Origin: a virus
UHGV virus genome: UHGV-0356033
Strand: one strand, 5' to 3'
DNA: 45,424 nt
The notes under the pieces are model-generated. The model was given only the letters and a program-made list of their open reading frames with translations, made no database searches and was not told the origin of the DNA. Both the position numbers and the translations under genes were made by a program. This document shows positions 4,875-27,646 of this stretch, piece by piece. Numbering within the stretch: the stretch's first letter is position 1; the number at the start of each line of letters is the position of its first letter.

Positions 4875-5550
4875 ATAAAGCGGCATCTCGTGGGTCGACA
4901 CCGACCCACTCTGCCATAAACCGGATATGTTCCTTAAACGGGTTAACCCCGTCTTGTTTGATTTGTTCAACCAATTCCCCGGTCAGTTCTGGTGTGAGCA
5001 TGGCAGGGTGTGTGATGGTAAAGCTTGGAATCGGTTTTTTCAAGTGTGTAGCGTTAAGCTTAATCCACTCGAACCAATCGTACATTATCCAGCAATCCCA
5101 CGCCAATGACAATCTCCCTGGTGTGAGATCTTCTAACGACCAAGACACTAATTCAACTTGTACGTTATTGTAGTACATCCGAAACAGATTCAAAAAGGCT
5201 TGAAGTTCTTCGCCCGTTAAATCCGTATAAGGCCACGTATTGATGGTTAGAGTGGGTTTTTCAATTGGCGAATGCATTTCGATTTCAAGCAGCATACACT
5301 CGAATTCGTTTTTCATTGTTGCCAATAATTCAGTAGGCTGCGCATTAATCAACGCGCGCTTATCCCGCTTCCGCCACTCTTCATCCCATTTTTCAAATCC
5401 AAGTACGCCAGCCCAAGCTTCTGTATAGCGACGACGATAAACATCGTAGTCTAGCAATGCTAAGCTTTCGGGCTTAACGGCTTTTACCCAACCTAAACGC
5501 GTATCAAATAACGTATCAATATCGATTAAGAAACGCCGAGATAATCTCAT
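4828..5550 (-). CDS. hypothetical protein (240 aa)
   Basis: ORF; ATG 5550-5548 overlaps TGA of upstream gene (ATGA); 3' end overlaps convergent gene 4410..4874 by 47 nt. Confidence 0.5.
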   Translation of the reverse strand: MRLSRRFLIDIDTLFDTRLGWVKAVKPESLALLDYDVYRRRYTEAWAGVLGFEKWDEEWRKRDKRALINAQPTELLATMKNEFECMLLEIEMHSPIEKPTLTINTWPYTDLTGEELQAFLNLFRMYYNNVQVELVSWSLEDLTPGRLSLAWDCWIMYDWFEWIKLNATHLKKPIPSFTITHPAMLTPELTGELVEQIKQDGVNPFKEHIRFMAEWVGVDPRDAALFSLARPAQDVQTPPS

Positions 5551-6215
5551 GACGGATGGCCTATGTTGTTACCGATATGCATCGCTTTTAGGTACGCCGA
5601 CCACGTACGCGTTGCTTTAGAACTCGTTCGCTCCGCTCCAGGCAAATCAATACGCCCTTTACCGGTTTGGCGCAGTGATTGATAGAAAGCACGTTGTAGT
5701 GCGTCGTTACCACCACGCGCCCACAAGAACTCTTTCAGTGTCCAGTCGTGGCCATCGGAATACATGATGTATGCCTCTGGGAAGGACACCCCAGATGCTT
5801 TGGAAGGTCCGACGACTTGACCGGAGAGTTTATCGCGGACTTTGTCGTTTTTCGCAACCGCCATTTTCTTTTCTTGCATCTGTGTCTGACGACGAACAGG
5901 CAAGCGTAAGACTAAGTGAGGGTAACGAGTACGGTGATAGACACCCGTTTTTGGTTCTGTTAACCAGAGTCGTTGCTCCAGGTTTACCCCGAGAATTTTG
6001 CACACCTCGATATTGCGCAGGTGGTCAATTTCGACTTTACTTCCCACCGGGTTGTAAATAGGCAAACCGTTACGAAGTCGGTTAAACTGTTCATCTGTCA
6101 TTCGAGCGAAGGCTTTCTTCGCGGCTTCAGCATTAATGCCAGAAGGGTCTACCAACTTTAAGATTTGTAAGGCGTAGGCTTCCGCCTTTTTACGCCGCGC
6201 TGGTTCGAGTTTCAT
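5547..6215 (-). CDS. hypothetical protein (222 aa)
   Basis: ORF with ATG 6215-6213. Confidence 0.55.
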   Translation of the reverse strand: MKLEPARRKKAEAYALQILKLVDPSGINAEAAKKAFARMTDEQFNRLRNGLPIYNPVGSKVEIDHLRNIEVCKILGVNLEQRLWLTEPKTGVYHRTRYPHLVLRLPVRRQTQMQEKKMAVAKNDKVRDKLSGQVVGPSKASGVSFPEAYIMYSDGHDWTLKEFLWARGGNDALQRAFYQSLRQTGKGRIDLPGAERTSSKATRTWSAYLKAMHIGNNIGHPS

Positions 6216-20143: not shown

Positions 20144-21076
20144 TTACTTTTTGGTTTGACCCAGGTTTTCAAGAACCAGTTCACGAATGTACTTCTGAGT
20201 ACGTTTCTTCGGCGGTAAAGCCATAAGGGTGTCAACGATTCCCTGCCCACCGATAACCTTGCTGACGAGTTGTTGAACTTGGAAGAGTTCTGCTTCTTCG
20301 TCACTGATTTCATTAGCTTGGTCTTTCTGACACAATGCTTCTACCAGGTCAGCTACGGATATTTCATTTTCGTCACCAGGGAAATCCAGGTTTAACGATT
20401 CGAAAACATCACGCTTAACGAGCACAGATTTCAGATCATCGTAGTTTTCACAAACGGCGACTTCTGTGCCAGGTACCGTTTCTTCTTCGTCTTGATCTTC
20501 ATTCTCAGCGGAGAGGTAACTTACTTCTGTTGCGTGGAATGTTGCGTCAGCTTTTCTCAGGACGTAGCTCACATGCGACCAATTGCTCAGGATGAAGTAG
20601 ACAACACCCCCATTTAATCCGATATTGCCCTGGCGAAGTTCGAGAGCAATTTCCAGGCGGCGTGAAATCTGCCCCAAGTCAAAGAAAGACTCGTCGCGTG
20701 CCGCAACAACTTCGTACTGATTCACCCCTTGTTCTACAACAACGAACCAGTTATCCGGGAGAGGATACGGGTTGCGCATGAAAGAAAGTTCGTTCCCTAC
20801 GCCTGGGTCAACAGTAACGGATGTATGGCGCATTCCCATGGAGAAGTTGAACGTATCCCCATTTAGAACCGCAATTGCACCGTCAATCGGAAGAATTTTG
20901 GTGGTACGATCAATAGAGAAAATCTCTTTCTGCGTAATTGAAGGCTGATTACTGCCTAGGAAGTGATTACGCAGAAAAGCAGCGGTTGCACCTACGCTGG
21001 TTTGTAGCATATGGTAATTATAACGACGACGTAGAGTGTTAGCCAGTTCGTAAATTACTTCAGATGGAAAAGTCAT
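20144..21076 (-). CDS. hypothetical protein (310 aa)
   Basis: ATG 21076-21074 with AGAGGA SD. Confidence 0.6.
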   Translation of the reverse strand: MTFPSEVIYELANTLRRRYNYHMLQTSVGATAAFLRNHFLGSNQPSITQKEIFSIDRTTKILPIDGAIAVLNGDTFNFSMGMRHTSVTVDPGVGNELSFMRNPYPLPDNWFVVVEQGVNQYEVVAARDESFFDLGQISRRLEIALELRQGNIGLNGGVVYFILSNWSHVSYVLRKADATFHATEVSYLSAENEDQDEEETVPGTEVAVCENYDDLKSVLVKRDVFESLNLDFPGDENEISVADLVEALCQKDQANEISDEEAELFQVQQLVSKVIGGQGIVDTLMALPPKKRTQKYIRELVLENLGQTKK

Positions 21077-21129
21077 TTTAATAGTCCTCTTTTAGGTTTG
21101 TTCAAATCAACTAAGGGTTATGTAAAAAG

Positions 21130-21609
21130 TTAAAATAATGGCAAGTTACGCCATTGACCTACGGAATAAAAAGCTTTTGGATGTTTACGGATATACGCTT
21201 TCGCTTCTTCTGGCAACCAACGGTCACCTACCAGTTTTTGTTGTGCAACAATTACCGCCATCAACAAATACGGGTTTTTCGCACCGGGGAACTTTGCATT
21301 GGTTTCTAGTGCAATATCCAATATTGACGACCAGCCCAGTAATTTATGCTGCGCCGGTAAACGTTCTTCAATATACATCAGCCATTTCATGATTTGTTTA
21401 GGCTTGTACGGACAGGTATAATTCGCCCAACACACCATGACGAACTTAATAGCCTTCGCAATCACCCATACAGGGACAGTCACGAAAAGGCAGAAAATGG
21501 CCAACTGCGAGGCGGGCGCTTCGACAAAAGTAAGCGCTACAAGAACCATACACAGTTCAAGTACCACAAACCAAAAACGCGTTGGATAACGCCAAATGAA
21601 TTTTATCAT
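21130..21609 (-). CDS. membrane protein (159 aa), two N-terminal hydrophobic helices
   Basis: Hydrophobic stretches FWFVVLELCMVLVALTFV and LAIFCLFVTVPVWVIAKAIKFVMV. Confidence 0.5.
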   Translation of the reverse strand: MIKFIWRYPTRFWFVVLELCMVLVALTFVEAPASQLAIFCLFVTVPVWVIAKAIKFVMVCWANYTCPYKPKQIMKWLMYIEERLPAQHKLLGWSSILDIALETNAKFPGAKNPYLLMAVIVAQQKLVGDRWLPEEAKAYIRKHPKAFYSVGQWRNLPLF

Positions 21610-21629
21610 AACTCTGTTCCTTTAGGGAA

Positions 21630-21670
21630 TGAAAATAAAAGTACCCCTTACTCCGTATAGGGTAAGGGGT
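21630..21670 (-). terminator. intrinsic terminator downstream of gene 21676..22185
   Basis: Stem 21643-21651/21662-21670; T-run on minus strand. Confidence 0.5.
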
Positions 21671-21675
21671 AGAGG

Positions 21676-22185
21676 TTAGAAGAACGGCTGGTTTGGAATG
21701 ACAGCGTACTCTAAAATGAACATGTGTTCTGGGGCGTCTTCTTTACGCCAGACTTTGTGTGTCGACACAAGTTTTTCCAGAATCGTTAAGAAACTACGTT
21801 GGCAGTATGTGTTTTCACCAAGCAGTAGATTTTGAAGTTCTACAGTAGCGTCCATATACGCCTGTTTAAAGACTAAATTACGGTTATACTGCCCGGTAAA
21901 ATTCCAAAGCAAGACTTTCCCTTCTTCGGTTTCTTTTACCGTTGGTCGTAAACCACAAATCCACAACAAGGCAAGGTTGACGTTCCAGTCAAACTCTAAA
22001 CCTTCTTCTTCGTCATCACCGAATGCTGTGGGTAAAGCATCGTAAAATTCGTGTTTCTCTGCGAATTCTTCATCCGACTTAATCTCGTCTTCGATACTGC
22101 TTCGGACGATACTGTAAACGTCTTTCGCGGTCAATTGTGCGGCTTTTGTAATGCCTTTATACCAATCGGTTACTACGATGCTCAA
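21676..22185 (-). CDS. hypothetical protein (169 aa), TTG start
   Basis: No ATG at 5' end; TTG 22185-22183 preceded by AGAGGAG SD with 7-nt spacer; overlaps TGA of upstream gene. Confidence 0.5.
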   Translation of the reverse strand: MSIVVTDWYKGITKAAQLTAKDVYSIVRSSIEDEIKSDEEFAEKHEFYDALPTAFGDDEEEGLEFDWNVNLALLWICGLRPTVKETEEGKVLLWNFTGQYNRNLVFKQAYMDATVELQNLLLGENTYCQRSFLTILEKLVSTHKVWRKEDAPEHMFILEYAVIPNQPFF

Positions 22186-22880
22186 AGGGTAACTCCTCTA
22201 TTGATTGGAAAACTCGTGTTTATCGTATCCCAAATTCTACTAACTTCCGCCAGTTGAATCTGACGTGGTGTTTTCTTCGCAAACGCAAGCTGACGTGGGG
22301 CCGAGCCCACAACAACAGGCACATCGATTTTCGCGCTATAGAACGCGGCGTCTTTCATAAAGCCTGCCATTTCTCGTTGTGCTGCTCGAGATTTGCTTTT
22401 GATTCGCGTGTGAGCGCCACTTTCACCCCAGTGGTAAGCTAACGCAATTTCAGCCATGGTGGGCTTGCGTTTGAGTCGTTTGGTTAACCCCTTCTCAAGA
22501 TGTTTAACATACGCAGTAGCCAGCAAAACAGCGTTACGCGGATTATACAAATCGGCGTTCTGACTAAGACCTAATTCTTTTCCATAAAGCTTTAGCAGAT
22601 TACGCTTGGTACTTGGAAGCATTTGTACCAGGCTATGTGCTCGTGAGCTTTTGTTGTAAGCCTTGGGATCAAAACGCGATTCACGATAAATCAGCGTAAT
22701 CATCAGCTTGGGATCAACGCCCTGCTTTCGTGAGATTTCCACAATTAACGGGCTGACTTTTTCGAACCGATGTTGGATTTGTGCAAACTCACGCTGATGC
22801 TTAGAATGTGGCGTTGACGTTGACGCCTGTGCGTTAAACGCGAAAAGTGTTACCAGTAAAAGGAAGAAGATACGAAACAT
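22182..22880 (-). CDS. secreted lytic transglycosylase, SLT domain (232 aa)
   Basis: Signal peptide MFRIFFLLLVTLFAFNAQA; SLT catalytic-region motif LIYRESRFDPKA...AHSLVQMLP; ATG 22880 has GGAGA SD (alternative ATG at 22907). Confidence 0.55.
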   Translation of the reverse strand: MFRIFFLLLVTLFAFNAQASTSTPHSKHQREFAQIQHRFEKVSPLIVEISRKQGVDPKLMITLIYRESRFDPKAYNKSSRAHSLVQMLPSTKRNLLKLYGKELGLSQNADLYNPRNAVLLATAYVKHLEKGLTKRLKRKPTMAEIALAYHWGESGAHTRIKSKSRAAQREMAGFMKDAAFYSAKIDVPVVVGSAPRQLAFAKKTPRQIQLAEVSRIWDTINTSFPINRGVTL

Positions 22881-22980
22881 TTTGTTTCTCCAGTTGGATT
22901 TATACATTTCCGTATTCCGTAAGACGAAATGACGGCGCGGACAGCTAATACTCCTTTGTTGTGTGCCCTAATGATAATAT

Positions 22981-23478
22981 CTATTTAAAAGAGTTTGGAA
23001 TTAATGACTCTGCTTCTTGGTACAACTTATCAGGTAAGTATAACGTGTAGCACTGCCTCCTCGGTTCAAGTTTTTTGTAAAGCCACAAAAAGATTTCTTG
23101 TCTTTCCCAGGAATCTAACCACCCATTTGCCATTCCCAGTGGAGGGATAGCAACGCTGGTATCCAGTTCCTCAACACAATCTGCTAATGCGGTAATGCCC
23201 GCAGTAACATAAGAAACCTGGGACTTTAAACGCCAATGTGTTTTCGTTGGGAGCAAGATGCACTTTTCATCAGGGTAAACGTAAACGCTTCCAATCTTAA
23301 TTTCGTCTTCGCGACACCGCTTACGGTAATCTTGATAAAGGTTGGGGTAGCGTTCACGGCACGCCAGTGCAATACCGCGACCCATCGCTCCTACGCAGTT
23401 AATGGTAACGACTTTATAGTCTTCGGGCGCATTAAAAAGATCGTTACCAATTTCAGATTCTTTACGTACCGTTAACAT
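22981..23478 (-). CDS. macro-domain-like protein (putative ADP-ribose binding or hydrolase), 165 aa
   Basis: VVTINCVGAMGRGIA resembles macro N-A-A-N...G-G-G-V-A motif and VAIPPLGMANGW resembles the macro F-P-x-I-S-x-G-x-x-G motif; start at 23478 chosen from domain architecture, weak SD. Confidence 0.4.
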   Translation of the reverse strand: MLTVRKESEIGNDLFNAPEDYKVVTINCVGAMGRGIALACRERYPNLYQDYRKRCREDEIKIGSVYVYPDEKCILLPTKTHWRLKSQVSYVTAGITALADCVEELDTSVAIPPLGMANGWLDSWERQEIFLWLYKKLEPRRQCYTLYLPDKLYQEAESLIPNSFK

Positions 23479-23565
23479 AACGAAACGCCCGGAGTTGATG
23501 TGTAGTATTAAAACGTGTACCGCCGATTGATAGCTCGACAAGTATAGCGATATATGTTTTACCCA

Positions 23566-23934
23566 TTATCGATTTTTCGTAATCCATTGCTTGACCGCCG
23601 CTTCTAAACCTTCGTGTTGTAAGCCCAGGCGTTGCATAGTCAGCGCCAAGTTGAGCGTGTGCACAACCTGTTCACGGAACTGATGATCGTTCATGCGGTC
23701 CCAGACCTTCTCTACCGAAATATTGTATTTCCAGAGCAAATAAGCTTCACGACACGATGCGCGACGAACCAAACTAGGTTTAACAAAAGGCAACTCGATT
23801 TCAGGCAAGTAACCTAAAAGCTTAACTAGCGGCGTTACCTGCGTCTTACCAAAGTCACCGCACTGATAACAAATTTGTAGAATATCAATTTCATTCAACG
23901 GTATACCGTAAATTGATGGGTTCTCTGTGAACAT
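23566..23934 (-). CDS. hypothetical protein (122 aa)
   Basis: ATG 23934 with GAGGAGAA SD; contains CYQCGDFGKT. Confidence 0.5.
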   Translation of the reverse strand: MFTENPSIYGIPLNEIDILQICYQCGDFGKTQVTPLVKLLGYLPEIELPFVKPSLVRRASCREAYLLWKYNISVEKVWDRMNDHQFREQVVHTLNLALTMQRLGLQHEGLEAAVKQWITKNR

Positions 23935-24136
23935 TCATATTCTCCTCAGGCTCGAAATGTGATTCGGGTGGCAACGTCCCTAAAGCCCCTTGGATACAAG
24001 CCGTCAGTGAAGGTTTGCCGAAACAGACCTTACCTATTGTCCCAACATTGGGATGCTGTAAGAACGCTTTTGCACGTTCGTATTCCTTCCAACAAATACT
24101 CGTATCCAAACCACCCACTCCGTACGATTTTAACAT
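23891..24136 (-). CDS. hypothetical protein (81 aa)
   Basis: ATG 24136 with AGGAGG SD; 3' end overlaps next gene by 44 nt in another frame. Confidence 0.45.
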   Translation of the reverse strand: MLKSYGVGGLDTSICWKEYERAKAFLQHPNVGTIGKVCFGKPSLTACIQGALGTLPPESHFEPEENMNVHREPINLRYTVE

Positions 24137-24202
24137 AATTAGCCCTCCTGACGTAAATTTCTCACACTCATAGTGAGGTACGCCAAGAGAGCTTTATTGT
24201 TT

Positions 24203-24646
24203 TTAGAATGTTTTGCTAAAATCGACCCACTCACGATCGCGTGAGTAAACCGCCTGATAGCCGCGTCGGATGAAATACTCTTTTGCTTCTTTACATTTCG
24301 CATACATGCCAGTAACAATTTCGCCGAAAACTTCATCAGCTGCAATTGCTTTGAAAATCTCTTTCATTACACCCCGTTGACGATAGTCTGGGAGCACGTA
24401 TACCGAACGTATCTTAAGTGAACCGTTACGATTCCGATAACTACAGTATCCTACCGCGACATCATCCTGATACACCAGAACTATGCAGTTACCTTCGATC
24501 AGCTGTCGCGCATTTAACTTCGGCACCGACATTTTGATTTTCAGTAACGTGGCCTGGTGGTCTAAGTAACGGTAGTGCAGTTTGAGTAAATCGGCAGCTT
24601 GTCGCTCACCGACTTTAGAAGATGCGTTCAACAAATAAATTTCCAT
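24203..24646 (-). CDS. GNAT-family N-acetyltransferase (147 aa)
   Basis: GNAT-like core VYVLPDYRQRGVMKEIFKAIAA and C-terminal YFIRRGYQAV; ATG 24646 with AAGG SD. Confidence 0.5.
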   Translation of the reverse strand: MEIYLLNASSKVGERQAADLLKLHYRYLDHQATLLKIKMSVPKLNARQLIEGNCIVLVYQDDVAVGYCSYRNRNGSLKIRSVYVLPDYRQRGVMKEIFKAIAADEVFGEIVTGMYAKCKEAKEYFIRRGYQAVYSRDREWVDFSKTF

Positions 24647-24677
24647 TTGCAAACCTTAGAGACGCAAAAAAGTAAAA

Positions 24678-24806
24678 TTAAAACCAACGCGCGATGACGA
24701 AAGCCGCAGCGGCTAATATGGCTGTGGTGATTATCAATCCACCCCATGAAAGTTCCGCGTCGTATAGTGCGGATATCGCTACATTCGTAGCGTTTATCGT
24801 GGTCAT
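24678..24806 (-). CDS. small membrane peptide (42 aa)
   Basis: Hand-translated: MTTINATNVAISALYDAELSWGGLIITTAILAAAAFVIARWF; AGGAG SD 6 nt upstream of ATG 24806; too short for ORF track. Confidence 0.35.
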   Translation of the reverse strand: MTTINATNVAISALYDAELSWGGLIITTAILAAAAFVIARWF

Positions 24807-24863
24807 TTTCTGCTCCTGTCAATACCCTCATACCGGAGGGTATCTTCTGGATTATCTGGGTGG

Positions 24864-24962
24864 TTAATCTTCGAACGCCCAACGGTGACGTTTAATCAGC
24901 CAGTTTAAACCTTTACCAATTAACCACAACGAGCCAAGTGTTAACAGAACCCCTACAACCAT
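24864..24962 (-). CDS. small membrane peptide (32 aa)
   Basis: Hand-translated: MVVGVLLTLGSLWLIGKGLNWLIKRHRWAFED; AGGAGAGGG SD upstream of ATG 24962; too short for ORF track. Confidence 0.3.
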   Translation of the reverse strand: MVVGVLLTLGSLWLIGKGLNWLIKRHRWAFED

Positions 24963-24972
24963 ATTCCCTCTC

Positions 24973-25158
24973 CTAATTCCGCCATTCGCATTCGCGTTGA
25001 CGCCAAATTGAACCCCATGATAGTTTAATCAGATAAGATGAAACTACCCATAAAATCATCACCACACAAAACATGACATAAAGAACCGCTAGTATGGACA
25101 TGAAGCCAAACCCTGCCGCATCCACAATACGACGGAACCAATCAGTTTGCATAAACAA
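24973..25158 (-). CDS. small membrane protein (about 59-61 aa)
   Basis: Hydrophobic core FGFMSILAVLYVMFCVVMILWVVSSYLI; TTG 25158 with GAAGGAG SD 6 nt upstream (or ATG 25152); overlaps 3' end of ATPase gene. Confidence 0.4.
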   Translation of the reverse strand: MFMQTDWFRRIVDAAGFGFMSILAVLYVMFCVVMILWVVSSYLIKLSWGSIWRQRECEWRN

Positions 25159-27646
25159 TTTTTACTCCTTCGTTATACACCGCAGGCAATGTCACCCCTT
25201 CCGGTTCGATGACACAGTACGATGCTTCATTAAGTTTAGAATGAACCTCGGCTTCGTGGGAGACTACCAACAGTTGAGAAAATTCTCCCGAGTTTGCTAA
25301 CGTTTTAATAAAACCGACCAGGTTGTTACGGTGCTCCTCATCCATGCCTTCCGAAGGCTCATCCAAAAGCAACGGAAACTGATGCAACTTCAGCGCTTTG
25401 TACGCAGTCAGCCTGAACATCAGATTAAATATCGCACGCTGCGCCTTAGACCCTTTACGCACGTCAGGAACAGGCTCAGGATGCGTTTTTAGCTGGACAG
25501 GAAAAGTATAATCCAAATCGCCGTCAGTGAGGTCACAAGGCATAACGCGCATGGGGTACGTCCAGACCTGTTCGATATAACGCGTCATTAACTCTGTGAT
25601 TCTAACGATAGCGTTGTAAAAATACTTTCTAAGTACACCCTTTTCTGGCGAGAAGGCTTGAATCATCAGTTTGTTATTGAACTGCTGGGCTTGTAAGTCA
25701 GCAAGTTCGCGTTCCAAACTGTTGAGCTGATTCAATTCATTTTCCATCTGACGATAACGTTCGCGTGCGGTTGTAAAAGCATCCAGCTTCCCTTCTCGAG
25801 CACGTAAGAGTTCCTCGACGACCGTATTTGTCAACGTAACCTTAACATCACTCTCTAACCGTTCGAATAACGCACTGAAATCATCTACAGCACGTTTAAC
25901 ATTCACCAGATAGGTAAGTGTCGTGTTAGCCAGTTCGTGCTCTCTACGACGCATTGAGAGCATCTCTGTGGCTTTACCTAATCGTGACTGTTGAAAAGCA
26001 ATTTTCTGTTGTAAAGCACCATCGACGTTACCAACGGCCGCTACGGCATCCTGCCATTCTTTTTCCGCCTTCACTAACCGTTGTCGGGTTTCATGGTACT
26101 CAATAGCAGAGTACAACTCACCGTCAAACGCTGCGCATAGACTCCCGAACTGCTCGCGTGATTCTGTGAAAACGTTACGTTCTTGCAAACGCTTAAAGAA
26201 CATGCTCAATACCGGGTCCTTTGAATACGTCAGCACAATCTCACGAACCTGCCGCATATAAGTTACATCAGATTCTAACTCAACACGATCGCGTAATAGG
26301 GCCTCTAACTGCGTTTGCAGTTCCGTGCGCTGCTGCTGTTGTCCGCGAATCGAAGACTCAAGTTCAGGTAAAGAACGTGTAACACCAGGCCGAAACTTAA
26401 ACCGGCACTGCGGACAATCCACTTCCGCTGTTTCTAAGTAGTGATTACGTTCGTGATTTAAATTCTGTAAAACGTTCTCCACTCGCTGGAGTCTATCCCG
26501 CAACCCTGCGGTTTTTTGATCCATCACCAGAAGCCGTTCTTCCAAAACATTGAGTTTTTCAGTTGAATGAATTGCGTCCAGTGTTGTTCCTAACCGTTGC
26601 CCCCAGACACGCGCATCGGTAGCCGCACGAAGTTGGTCTAAATTGACGTTGTCGTTAAATAGACCCGGAAAGAGATGCTCGGTGTCCCATTTGGTAAGTA
26701 ACTCACGTAAACGCGCCAATGTATTCTTGAGACCTTCGTGATTCCGCATCAGGTAGTCTTGTCGTGTCGACTCATCCATCAATAACGACAAGTCTTTATT
26801 CAACATCGATACCTCTGTTTCAGTAGACACGACAGCTTCGCGGGCCGTCGCTTCGTTTTGTCGCGCGGCCAGTATCTGTTCATCAGTAGGCAGTCCACCA
26901 CGATGTTGTAATATTGCGTCGATGGTTGGGCCCAAGCTGTTTAATAACGCTTGGATTGTTTCGATGGTGACGGCACGATTTAATCCTGGCAACTGTTCGA
27001 TTTCTCGGTTCAGTTCACGTAAATCCGATTCCAAACCTTTTAATCTCGTCGCCAACTGCTGCCGTTCTTCCTCGTTCTCAATAACACGCGTCCGCAATTC
27101 GGCGATTTTACGGCTGGTGATTTCAATACCCCCATTTAAGGCAGTAAGGTTTTTACGTAAACGTTGATAAAACCCTAACGCGTAGGTGAGGTCAGAGGTA
27201 CTTAAACGGTAAAACCACTTACGACGCAGTTCCGTTCCTGCATCCGTTAAAAGCACTTCTCCGTTCAGTAGTTCTTTAATCTCTTTTGTAATGCCTGTGA
27301 TTTCTTCAACACGGGAGTTGTAGACTTTCGCATTACCTTGCTCGACGATCTTTGCCCCCGTGGTCAAGTTCTCAATATCACAAACCAGTGAGTTCCCTTT
27401 ACGGGCAACTTTGAAACGATAGCGTTGATCGCCAACTAAACAGTAGTTCGTGTAAGAACCGCCGTCTCTGAATTCAGTTTTAGCCGGTGCTAAGGGTAAG
27501 AACACAGACAGTAGACTGGTTTTCCCGCAGCCGTTCCCACCCAGGATAATTGTTGTTGGAGACTGGATAGTGAAATCGAAAGTTTCAATTTCATGTAACC
27601 CCATCCCCGTAAAACCTTTGAGTATAATGCGTTCAACTTTTAGCAT
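25142..27646 (-). CDS. Rad50/SbcC-family (SMC-like) ATPase with coiled coil and CxxC zinc hook (834 aa)
   Basis: Walker A GGNGCGKTS near N-terminus; long coiled-coil middle with CPQC; C-terminal signature-like GSKAQRA, Walker B LLLDEPSEGMD, H-loop VVSHEA; start set at ATG 27646 (GGAGG SD) rather than track 27721. Confidence 0.6.
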   Translation of the reverse strand: MLKVERIILKGFTGMGLHEIETFDFTIQSPTTIILGGNGCGKTSLLSVFLPLAPAKTEFRDGGSYTNYCLVGDQRYRFKVARKGNSLVCDIENLTTGAKIVEQGNAKVYNSRVEEITGITKEIKELLNGEVLLTDAGTELRRKWFYRLSTSDLTYALGFYQRLRKNLTALNGGIEITSRKIAELRTRVIENEEERQQLATRLKGLESDLRELNREIEQLPGLNRAVTIETIQALLNSLGPTIDAILQHRGGLPTDEQILAARQNEATAREAVVSTETEVSMLNKDLSLLMDESTRQDYLMRNHEGLKNTLARLRELLTKWDTEHLFPGLFNDNVNLDQLRAATDARVWGQRLGTTLDAIHSTEKLNVLEERLLVMDQKTAGLRDRLQRVENVLQNLNHERNHYLETAEVDCPQCRFKFRPGVTRSLPELESSIRGQQQQRTELQTQLEALLRDRVELESDVTYMRQVREIVLTYSKDPVLSMFFKRLQERNVFTESREQFGSLCAAFDGELYSAIEYHETRQRLVKAEKEWQDAVAAVGNVDGALQQKIAFQQSRLGKATEMLSMRRREHELANTTLTYLVNVKRAVDDFSALFERLESDVKVTLTNTVVEELLRAREGKLDAFTTARERYRQMENELNQLNSLERELADLQAQQFNNKLMIQAFSPEKGVLRKYFYNAIVRITELMTRYIEQVWTYPMRVMPCDLTDGDLDYTFPVQLKTHPEPVPDVRKGSKAQRAIFNLMFRLTAYKALKLHQFPLLLDEPSEGMDEEHRNNLVGFIKTLANSGEFSQLLVVSHEAEVHSKLNEASYCVIEPEGVTLPAVYNEGVKIVYAN

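Follow-up and report, generated by a model that had tools for sequence, protein, structure and literature searches.

The 45,424-nt viral sequence UHGV-0356033, referred to here over its whole length as the window, carries five closely spaced open reading frames (ORFs) on its minus strand between positions 22182 and 24646. In the order in which they are transcribed, these genes encode a 147-residue GNAT-fold protein that is likely an N-acyltransferase (24203-24646), two small conserved proteins of 81 and 122 residues (p81, 23891-24136; p122, 23566-23934), a 165-residue stand-alone DarG-type macrodomain protein (22981-23478) and a 232-residue lytic transglycosylase of family-1 type with an SLT domain (22182-22880). 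The initial annotation of this DNA gave the limits of the block exactly: the SLT stop codon ends at 22182 and the GNAT ATG begins at 24646, and the two small genes that it placed between the macro and GNAT genes are indeed there. Its account of an SLT gene followed by a macro gene and then a GNAT gene is right for their positions on the map but not for the order of expression, as transcription begins with GNAT and finishes with SLT.

The initial annotation had proposed profile searches and structure prediction as checks on its macro and GNAT calls. Judged against curated cut-offs, Pfam matches bear out all three domains: SLT (PF01464) in the 22182-22907 ORF at an E value of 8.8e-15 (54.7 bits against a cut-off of 21.3), Macro (PF01661) in the 22981-23541 ORF at 5.3e-6 (26.8 bits against 22), and GNAT in the 24203-24652 ORF through both PF00583 (9.2e-8, 32.8 bits against 20.7) and PF13508 (8.9e-8, 32.8 bits against 27). 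In the PHROGs collection, the same genes match transglycosylase (5.6e-47), phrog_335 (macro, 9.7e-36) and phrog_3810 ‘acetyltransferase’ (9.8e-26), and the small genes match phrog_28329 (p81, 3.1e-16) and phrog_11720 (p122, 6.6e-31). Gene starts were refined from a reading of the DNA, homologue alignments and public gene calls on contigs carrying the identical protein. For the macro gene, a 186-residue ORF beginning with TTG was rejected in favor of the ATG at 23478; nearly all full-length homologues have 161-166 residues, and public gene calls concur. A 241-residue ORF for the SLT gene was likewise replaced by one beginning at the ATG at 22880, which has a GGAG Shine-Dalgarno sequence and fits homologues that begin with MFR. 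The GNAT ATG at 24646 is preceded by an AAGG Shine-Dalgarno sequence and agrees with homologues and public gene calls.

Protein-level searches identify the source of the window as an SPN3US/Asesino-like chimallivirus, a nucleus-forming jumbo phage, with the nucleus-forming class taken from collinearity with Asesino (chimallin and PicA lie outside the window). The nearest relatives at the protein level are the ~240-kb Salmonella and Erwinia jumbo phages, namely SPN3US (Seoulvirus), Asesino (Erskinevirus) and their kin. Matches to Asesino gp189-gp247 were found for 38 of the 49 window ORFs, in perfect inverted collinearity and at about 25-85% identity; a fragment of the RNA polymerase beta subunit (86%), UvsX (80%) and an SbcC/SMC-like protein (70%) are among them. 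The annotations of SPN3US and Asesino share the order SMC, tiny membrane proteins, acetyltransferase, small genes, macrodomain protein and transglycosylase, and all five block genes have orthologues there: SPN3US_0191 and Asesino gp212 (GNAT), ACQ60_gp074 and gp213 (p81), ACQ60_gp072 and gp214 (p122), SPN3US_0196 and gp217 (macro), and SPN3US_0198 and gp218 (SLT). At the nucleotide level, a megablast search with 5 kb around the block (21000-26000) found no near-identical match among 50,697 phage records. Macro proteins 90-98% identical to that of the window are encoded by metagenomic contigs and by NCBI ‘Salmonella enterica’ assemblies (those in the assemblies at 90%, on contigs up to 226 kb), and the exact protein is present in several metagenomes. 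The window therefore represents a Salmonella-associated member of the SPN3US/Asesino supergroup, uncultured or unrecognized, and may belong to a jumbo phage carried along in assemblies of Salmonella isolates. The window yielded neither tRNA genes nor Rfam families, and scans of 21000-25300 for sigma-70 promoters and terminators, which are poorly suited to phages with their own RNA polymerases, gave results at or near shuffle expectation.

The DarG-type macrodomain protein

Three independent lines of evidence, from profiles, PDB sequence searches and a predicted structure, identify the macro protein as a DarG-type macrodomain and not one of the MacroD/Poa1p type, placing a call that had initially relied on two short motifs on much firmer ground. 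The protein matches the NCBIfam antitoxin_DarG model at 7.7e-36 and the PADLOC DarG model at 9e-37, and its PDB sequence matches are led by the DarG macrodomain of Mycobacterium tuberculosis (4.7e-26), Thermus DarG (5e-21) and a Thermosipho DarTG fusion (1e-11), with ADP-ribose-1''-phosphatases appearing only at 0.02-0.06. In the predicted structure, an AlphaFold2 (AF2) model with a mean confidence score (pLDDT) of 93.4, the top three Foldseek matches in the PDB are all DarG macrodomains (5m3e, 5m3i and 5m31; E values of 6e-13 to 2e-12, TM scores of 0.78-0.86, root-mean-square deviations (rmsd) of 1.8-2.2 Å). The best of these is Thermus DarG bound to ADP-ribose (5m3e; 6e-13, TM 0.79/0.86, rmsd 1.8 Å), and TARG1 and alphavirus macrodomains rank behind the DarG structures. 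The catalytic machinery is also conserved. Asn27 (codon 23398-23400) corresponds to N22 of Thermus DarG and N23 of PhiKZ gp104, and Lys79 (codon 23242-23244) corresponds to Thermus K80, with the catalytic roles of these residues taken from published work (PMC13309987). Both are invariant in an alignment of six sequences (the window, SPN3US and Asesino proteins, PhiKZ gp104, and the Thermus and M. tuberculosis DarG macrodomains), in which the GxMGxG and PPLG loops are invariant as well, and in a second alignment of 24 homologues.

The window protein shares its fold, its ADP-ribose loops, its catalytic residues and 40-43% identity over the domain with the DarG2 macrodomains of Thermus aquaticus (5M31/5M3E) and M. 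tuberculosis (5M3I). By contrast with those proteins, it is phage-encoded, has neither the C-terminal DarT-binding domain of DarG nor a cognate DarT, and is proposed to be used against a host system. The NCBIfam match is confined to positions 7-155 of 338, the macro portion of the model, in the PADLOC match likewise only the macro half aligns, and the full-length DarG model NF048014 scores 124 bits against a curated cut-off of 250. No DarT-like (DUF4433) Pfam match was found among the nine neighboring ORFs scanned, and the macro gene is therefore an orphan. Taken together, the half-length match, the score below the cut-off and the missing DarT neighbor lead us to conclude that the protein is not a DarG antitoxin, although it is predicted to work like a DarG macrodomain.

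Such orphans have recently been named. AdfM, an abbreviation of anti-DarT factor macro, is the DarG2-like macrodomain of chimalliviruses, about half of which have a homologue (Morgan et al., Cell Rep, April 2026; PMC13309987). That study listed Asesino gp217 as an AdfM and treated Asesino as a chimallivirus in which the protein is nuclear. The macro protein of the window is 61.6% identical to gp217 (YP_009290835.1), which lies at the syntenic position, ~65% identical to the SPN3US AdfM and 36% identical to PhiKZ gp104. Like the AdfM proteins of PhiKZ (gp104), PhiPA3 (gp108), Goslar (gp83) and Asesino, it is a chimallivirus-encoded, stand-alone DarG2-like macrodomain of ~160 residues, with the catalytic Asn and Lys kept and no DarT next to it; the PhiKZ protein differs in its gene neighborhood and in having no Trp in the loop that is NGG elsewhere. 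From sequence and model, the window protein has every feature of AdfM that can be checked in silico, and we identify it as an AdfM orthologue.

What AdfM does is known best from PhiKZ. From a TNTC oligonucleotide, gp104 strips off ADP-ribose added by DarT2, and an N23A mutant is impaired; gp104 alone is sufficient to rescue DarT2 toxicity when co-expressed in Escherichia coli; and growth of PhiKZ on clinical isolates carrying DarTG2 requires it (PMC13309987). Fusions of the PhiKZ, PhiPA3 and Asesino proteins to green fluorescent protein localize to the phage nucleus through import that depends on PicA, which recognizes surface features of folded cargo (PMC13309987). By homology with PhiKZ gp104 and Asesino gp217, we infer enzymatic activity, a DarT2 target and import into the phage nucleus for the window protein. 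It would represent an orphan copy of the DarG2 antitoxin macrodomain, without the domain that binds the toxin, and would bind the ADP-ribose placed by host DarT2 on the thymidines of single-stranded phage DNA, hydrolyzing it by means of the conserved Asn27/Lys79 pair. Removal of ADP-ribose in this manner could keep the phage DNA replicable and packageable in hosts carrying DarTG2.

The initial annotation had suggested that a phage macrodomain might counter host ADP-ribosylating toxins, including those of DarT type, and the DarG-type sequence, structure and catalytic residues together with orthology to gp217 support this idea. Its alternative, that NAD-derived defense signals are the target, is less favored, as similarity to DarG is far above that to Poa1p/MacroD-type enzymes. 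The principle of a phage macrodomain acting against DarT was already published in April 2026, and the window adds a divergent member of the family rather than a new mechanism. Other phages have reached a comparable end by different means. AdfN of T4-like phages, likewise an orphan glycohydrolase of antitoxin-like type, frees phage DNA of ADP-ribose but has a NADAR fold and acts against DarTG1, whose DarT1 modifies guanine rather than the thymine modified by DarT2 (PMC11825919). AdfB (ICP1 gp145) follows the same strategic logic with an unrelated fold and likely binds DarT directly as a stoichiometric inhibitor (PMC11481870), and AdfA is a further anti-DarT factor (named in PMC11825919).

The SLT transglycosylase and its neighbors

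The SLT protein begins with the sequence MFRIFFLLLVTLFAFNAQA-ST, in which the hyphen marks the predicted cleavage site. A strongly hydrophobic stretch at its core, with small residues at positions -3 and -1, recurs in all three aligned phages (window, SPN3US and Asesino). This conserved signal sequence, a predicted Sec signal peptide encoded at 22824-22880, agrees with the initial description of the enzyme as secreted. The mature protein is basic (isoelectric point (pI) of 10.5). Its catalytic Glu, in a RES motif, is encoded at 22680-22682, and the motifs R-E-S-R-F, S-L-V-Q-M and A-Y-x-x-G-E are kept among the aligned phage proteins and align with MltC and with gp144 of PhiKZ. A PDB sequence search matched it to MltC, EmtA and gp144, the PhiKZ endolysin, with E values of 3e-7 to 8e-5. 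These three enzymes share the SLT catalytic domain and its Glu-Ser motif with the window protein, although they differ in other respects: MltC and EmtA are lipoproteins, and gp144 carries a peptidoglycan-binding domain at its N-terminus and is set free by gp142, the class III holin of a five-gene lysis cassette. In the window protein, a Sec signal peptide is present, which gp144 does not have, and there is neither a binding domain nor a recognizable cassette.

With the domain, the catalytic Glu and the signal peptide all in place, the SLT protein is most likely the phage endolysin, a role in lysis being our interpretation of these features. The enzyme would be exported by the Sec pathway by way of a cleavable signal peptide and would cleave peptidoglycan as a lytic transglycosylase. 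SPN3US_0198 was deposited as a ‘putative endolysin’, and the endolysin annotation recurs across the clade; a surveyed Seoulvirus genome has a single lytic transglycosylase gene, which its authors classed as an endolysin (PMC11180984). Our survey of the literature on SPN3US gp191, gp196 and gp198 and on signal-peptide endolysins of Erwinia and Salmonella jumbo phages found no functional data.

Directly downstream lies a gene for an acidic 169-residue protein (21676-22185, minus strand; phrog_8114 at 8.4e-76; pI 4.6, no transmembrane segment). Its TTG start codon and the stop codon of SLT overlap (TTGA), and the protein is therefore probably translationally coupled to the transglycosylase. By tblastn it is found directly downstream of the transglycosylase in 53 of 53 records, all in the Salmonella/Erwinia jumbo clade, and, by analogy with PhiKZ gp143, it could be an accessory or regulator of lysis. 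Two genes downstream of SLT, a basic 159-residue protein (21130-21609, minus strand) has two N-terminal transmembrane-like segments and no counterpart in Asesino; it is possibly a holin-like membrane protein.

The GNAT protein and the small genes p81 and p122

The fold of the GNAT protein is certain, and its AF2 model has a pLDDT of 92.2. Foldseek with this model returned 571 PDB matches at E values of 1e-3 or better, and the best 50 of the 571 are GNAT-superfamily proteins at 10-18% identity. They include a putative acetyltransferase of Listeria, Naa50, PaiA, NatD and HP0935, with no informative nearest subfamily. In BFVD, the best viral structural matches are to GNATs that other jumbo phages of Erwinia and Pseudomonas encode. 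A PDB sequence search gave only marginal matches (0.03 or worse), and a word-indexed homologue search recovered only the phage clade. The family is restricted to ~50 records of Salmonella and Erwinia jumbo phages and is among the fastest-evolving in the block, with 34-40% identity compared with 62% for macro; the window protein itself is 38-40% identical to its SPN3US and Asesino orthologues. The acyl-CoA loop, R89-Q-R-G92-V-M94 (encoded at 24365-24382), has Met at the last position rather than the Gly or Ala of the beta4-alpha3 consensus Q/R-x-x-G-x-G/A. The window's GNAT subclade is without a ~15-residue C-terminal tail, ending in Ala, that is present in all other aligned members.

Acyltransferase activity is likely, with acyl-CoA most likely serving as donor of an acyl group to an amine of a protein or small molecule, of either host or phage. 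Some relatives are annotated as RimI-like, and both RimI and Rac of the phiKMV-like phages share the GNAT fold. A closer relationship to RimI or Rac finds no support, as the match to the rimI model TIGR01575 (0.004) reaches 17.2 of the 86.4 bits that its cut-off requires, no solved GNAT is more than 18% identical and no phiKMV-like protein appears among the top viral structural matches. Between the GNAT gene and the SbcC/SMC-like gene lie two tiny ORFs, at 24678-24806 (42 residues) and 24973-25158 (61 residues), both on the minus strand and each with one strong transmembrane segment; four hypothetical genes of very small size are annotated at this site in SPN3US and Asesino.

Of the two small genes that follow GNAT, p81 carries a tuf-derived mimic of the EF-Tu N-terminus. 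The middle of p81 resembles EF-Tu residues ~3-38, comprising the first beta strand and a remnant of the P-loop, and NCBIfam EF-Tu models match it at 3e-4 to 1.5e-3. For its Asesino orthologue gp213 (positions 5312-5641 of the locus examined, L003), a PDB search returned 81 distinct sequences, nearly all of them EF-Tu chains, with an exact run of 12 residues, HVNVGTIGHVDH; across the corresponding 36 nt, gp213 shares 88.9% identity with the tuf of each E. coli genome searched. Throughout the p81 family the motif H-x-N-V-G-x-I-G-x-V is invariant, and EF-Tu shares it, and the P-loop Lys and Thr are lost. An exhaustive search of 1.84 billion proteins with p81 listed seven representatives, five of them credible and two spurious repeat proteins, and at that database size EF-Tu fell below significance. 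The second gene, p122, is ~42% identical to SPN3US gp072 and Asesino gp214 and has no Pfam match. A 34-residue ORF (23462-23566, minus strand) has an ATG start that shares bases with the stop codon of p122 (TAATG), and its last 17 nt lie within the macro gene; of four public contigs examined, three include it among their gene calls.

Probably independent enzymes in an inherited gene order

Any implication that the three enzymes form a single functional unit is not supported by our comparisons; the linkage is explained by clade-wide collinearity, and SLT, macro and GNAT most likely act independently within a vertically inherited gene order. The three families differ in their distribution: 262 phage records have the macro gene, 140 have the SLT family and only 50 the GNAT family of the window. 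Macro and SLT are adjacent throughout the collinear supergroup, including Phobos, EarlPhillipIV and Wellington, and even in Vibrio phage pVa-21 the order is still SMC-x-macro-SLT. Distances of tens to more than 100 kb separate the two genes, by contrast, in Ea35-70/Deimos-Minion, FBKp24, Kodama, Eowyn and 2050HW, and the annotated genes flanking the PhiKZ macro gene include neither SLT nor GNAT. The GNAT family of the window was not found outside the supergroup, and in the macro neighborhoods of eight additional chimallivirus lineages a Pfam GNAT was detected only in Kodama and FBKp24. We assign a probability of roughly 0.8 to the overall reading of an inherited accessory stretch with three most likely independent enzymes, namely an AdfM orthologue, a probable endolysin and a GNAT.

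Several observations weigh against parts of this reading. The enzymatic assay was confined to PhiKZ gp104, at 36% identity, and Asesino gp217 was only localized (PMC13309987). In the phosphate loop of the macro protein, moreover, Trp replaces the second Gly: the sequence is PPLGMANGW in the window protein (residues 112-121), SPN3US and Asesino, compared with PPLGxGNGG in DarG macrodomains and PPLGCANGG in PhiKZ AdfM. An exported endolysin with a signal peptide is unlike the holin-dependent PhiKZ gp144, and neither a holin nor a spanin was recognized beside the SLT gene. Within the GNAT family, Gly92 of the acyl-CoA loop is Lys in the SPN3US subclade and the position of the usual alpha4 Tyr is an invariant Phe125, so that part of the family may lack transferase activity. 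Finally, a different GNAT family occurs directly upstream of an AdfM-like gene in two distant chimalliviruses, leaving room for a link between GNAT and macro. In Serratia phage Kodama (locus L009, 2523-3432), the upstream GNAT gene overlaps the macro gene, and in Klebsiella phage FBKp24 (locus L015, 2035-3423) a GNAT of the same family lies 478 nt upstream of it. Both phages share the context RNA polymerase beta, helicase, GNAT and macro, and neither hhalign nor BLAST found a specific relationship between their GNAT family and that of the window. A separate observation concerns Agricanvirus, in which the AdfM-like macro gene is followed immediately downstream by a gene (Deimos-Minion gp158; locus L016, 3468-4349) with a weak YAcAr/SLOG match at 1.3e-4, below the cut-off, which would place another NAD- or ADP-ribose-linked domain beside a macro gene.

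Of the other explanations, the one that retains the most weight, although still a doubtful one, concerns the SLT protein, which could be an enzyme of entry or cell-wall remodeling rather than an endolysin, for example one creating room in the peptidoglycan in the course of infection. Its PHROG matches include tail and internal-virion lytic domains, there is the missing holin or spanin, and a freely exported transglycosylase would need some control against premature lysis. However, a small, basic, single-domain protein with a cleavable signal peptide is ill-suited to a virion component assembled in the cytoplasm, and the annotation across the clade, the report of no other lytic transglycosylase in a Seoulvirus genome (PMC11180984) and the resemblance of the catalytic domain to the PhiKZ gp144 endolysin all favor an endolysin. 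It is unlikely that GNAT, p81 and/or macro form one functional module, with the block a system and not mere synteny. In its favor, the window, SPN3US and Asesino all keep the order GNAT-p81-p122-macro although insertions differ between the lineages, and an unrelated GNAT family lies upstream of the AdfM-like gene in Kodama and FBKp24. Conserved order carries little information, however, because the whole 45 kb is collinear among these phages, and no GNAT was detected next to macro in PhiKZ, 201phi2-1, Eowyn, Ea277G, Deimos-Minion or pVa-21. Moreover, Kodama and FBKp24, with their shared local context, may count as one event; GNATs are common in jumbo phages, and we roughly estimate the chance of two cases in ~8 lineages at P ~0.1; and the PhiKZ AdfM works alone against DarT2 in E. 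coli (PMC13309987). We regard as equally speculative a narrower proposal in which GNAT and p81 would be a two-gene module aimed at host EF-Tu, with p81 as a decoy or adaptor for an enzyme or defense that recognizes the EF-Tu N-terminal region, and a broader version in which GNATs would be recurrent partners of AdfM in chimalliviruses. The weakly RimI-like GNAT could partner p81 because RimI acetylates the N-terminus of EF-Tu in E. coli (PMC9079301).

For the macro protein, the alternatives concern its substrate, and both are improbable. The enzyme could act on soluble derivatives of ADP-ribose (O-acetyl-ADP-ribose, ADP-ribose-1''-phosphate or a Thoeris-type cyclic ADP-ribose) instead of DNA, in NAD or RNA-repair metabolism or in the quenching of defense signals. 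Annotations of relatives and of phrog_335 read ‘Appr-1-p processing protein’ or ‘phosphatase’, such a role was proposed for jumbo-phage macrodomains by Iyer et al. 2021, and the weak PDB matches to ADP-ribose-1''-phosphatase (0.02-0.06) point the same way. Yet similarity to DarG is at least 20 orders of magnitude better than that to Poa1p/MacroD-type enzymes, and the catalytic Lys of DarG and TARG1 is present in the window protein. The GGGVD motif of MacroD enzymes carries an acidic residue, which the corresponding window loop, GAMGRGIA, does not. In addition, the PhiKZ member of the family is active on DNA-linked ADP-ribose (PMC13309987). Perhaps a shade less probable still is reversal of protein ADP-ribosylation in the manner of TARG1, the modification being made by an ADP-ribosyltransferase of either host defense or phage. 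TARG1 is the next-best structural class after DarG (TM 0.71-0.72) and uses an equivalent catalytic lysine, but identity to it is ~19% compared with 33-43% to DarG. Phage macrodomains align best with the macrodomains of DarG2, which act on DNA (PMC13309987), a further point for DNA-linked ADP-ribose as the substrate of AdfM.

More broadly, these results extend the AdfM family to a Salmonella-associated lineage of jumbo phages. The catalytic machinery of the macro protein is strictly conserved even where neighboring genes diverge rapidly, which fits continuing selection from DarTG2 systems in enterobacteria. The remaining novelty of the block lies in the GNAT, the small EF-Tu-like protein and a probable signal-peptide endolysin in a nucleus-forming phage. 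For its host range, the presence of AdfM would predict plating on Salmonella and E. coli strains that carry DarTG2, which is relevant to the choice of jumbo phages for therapy or biocontrol.

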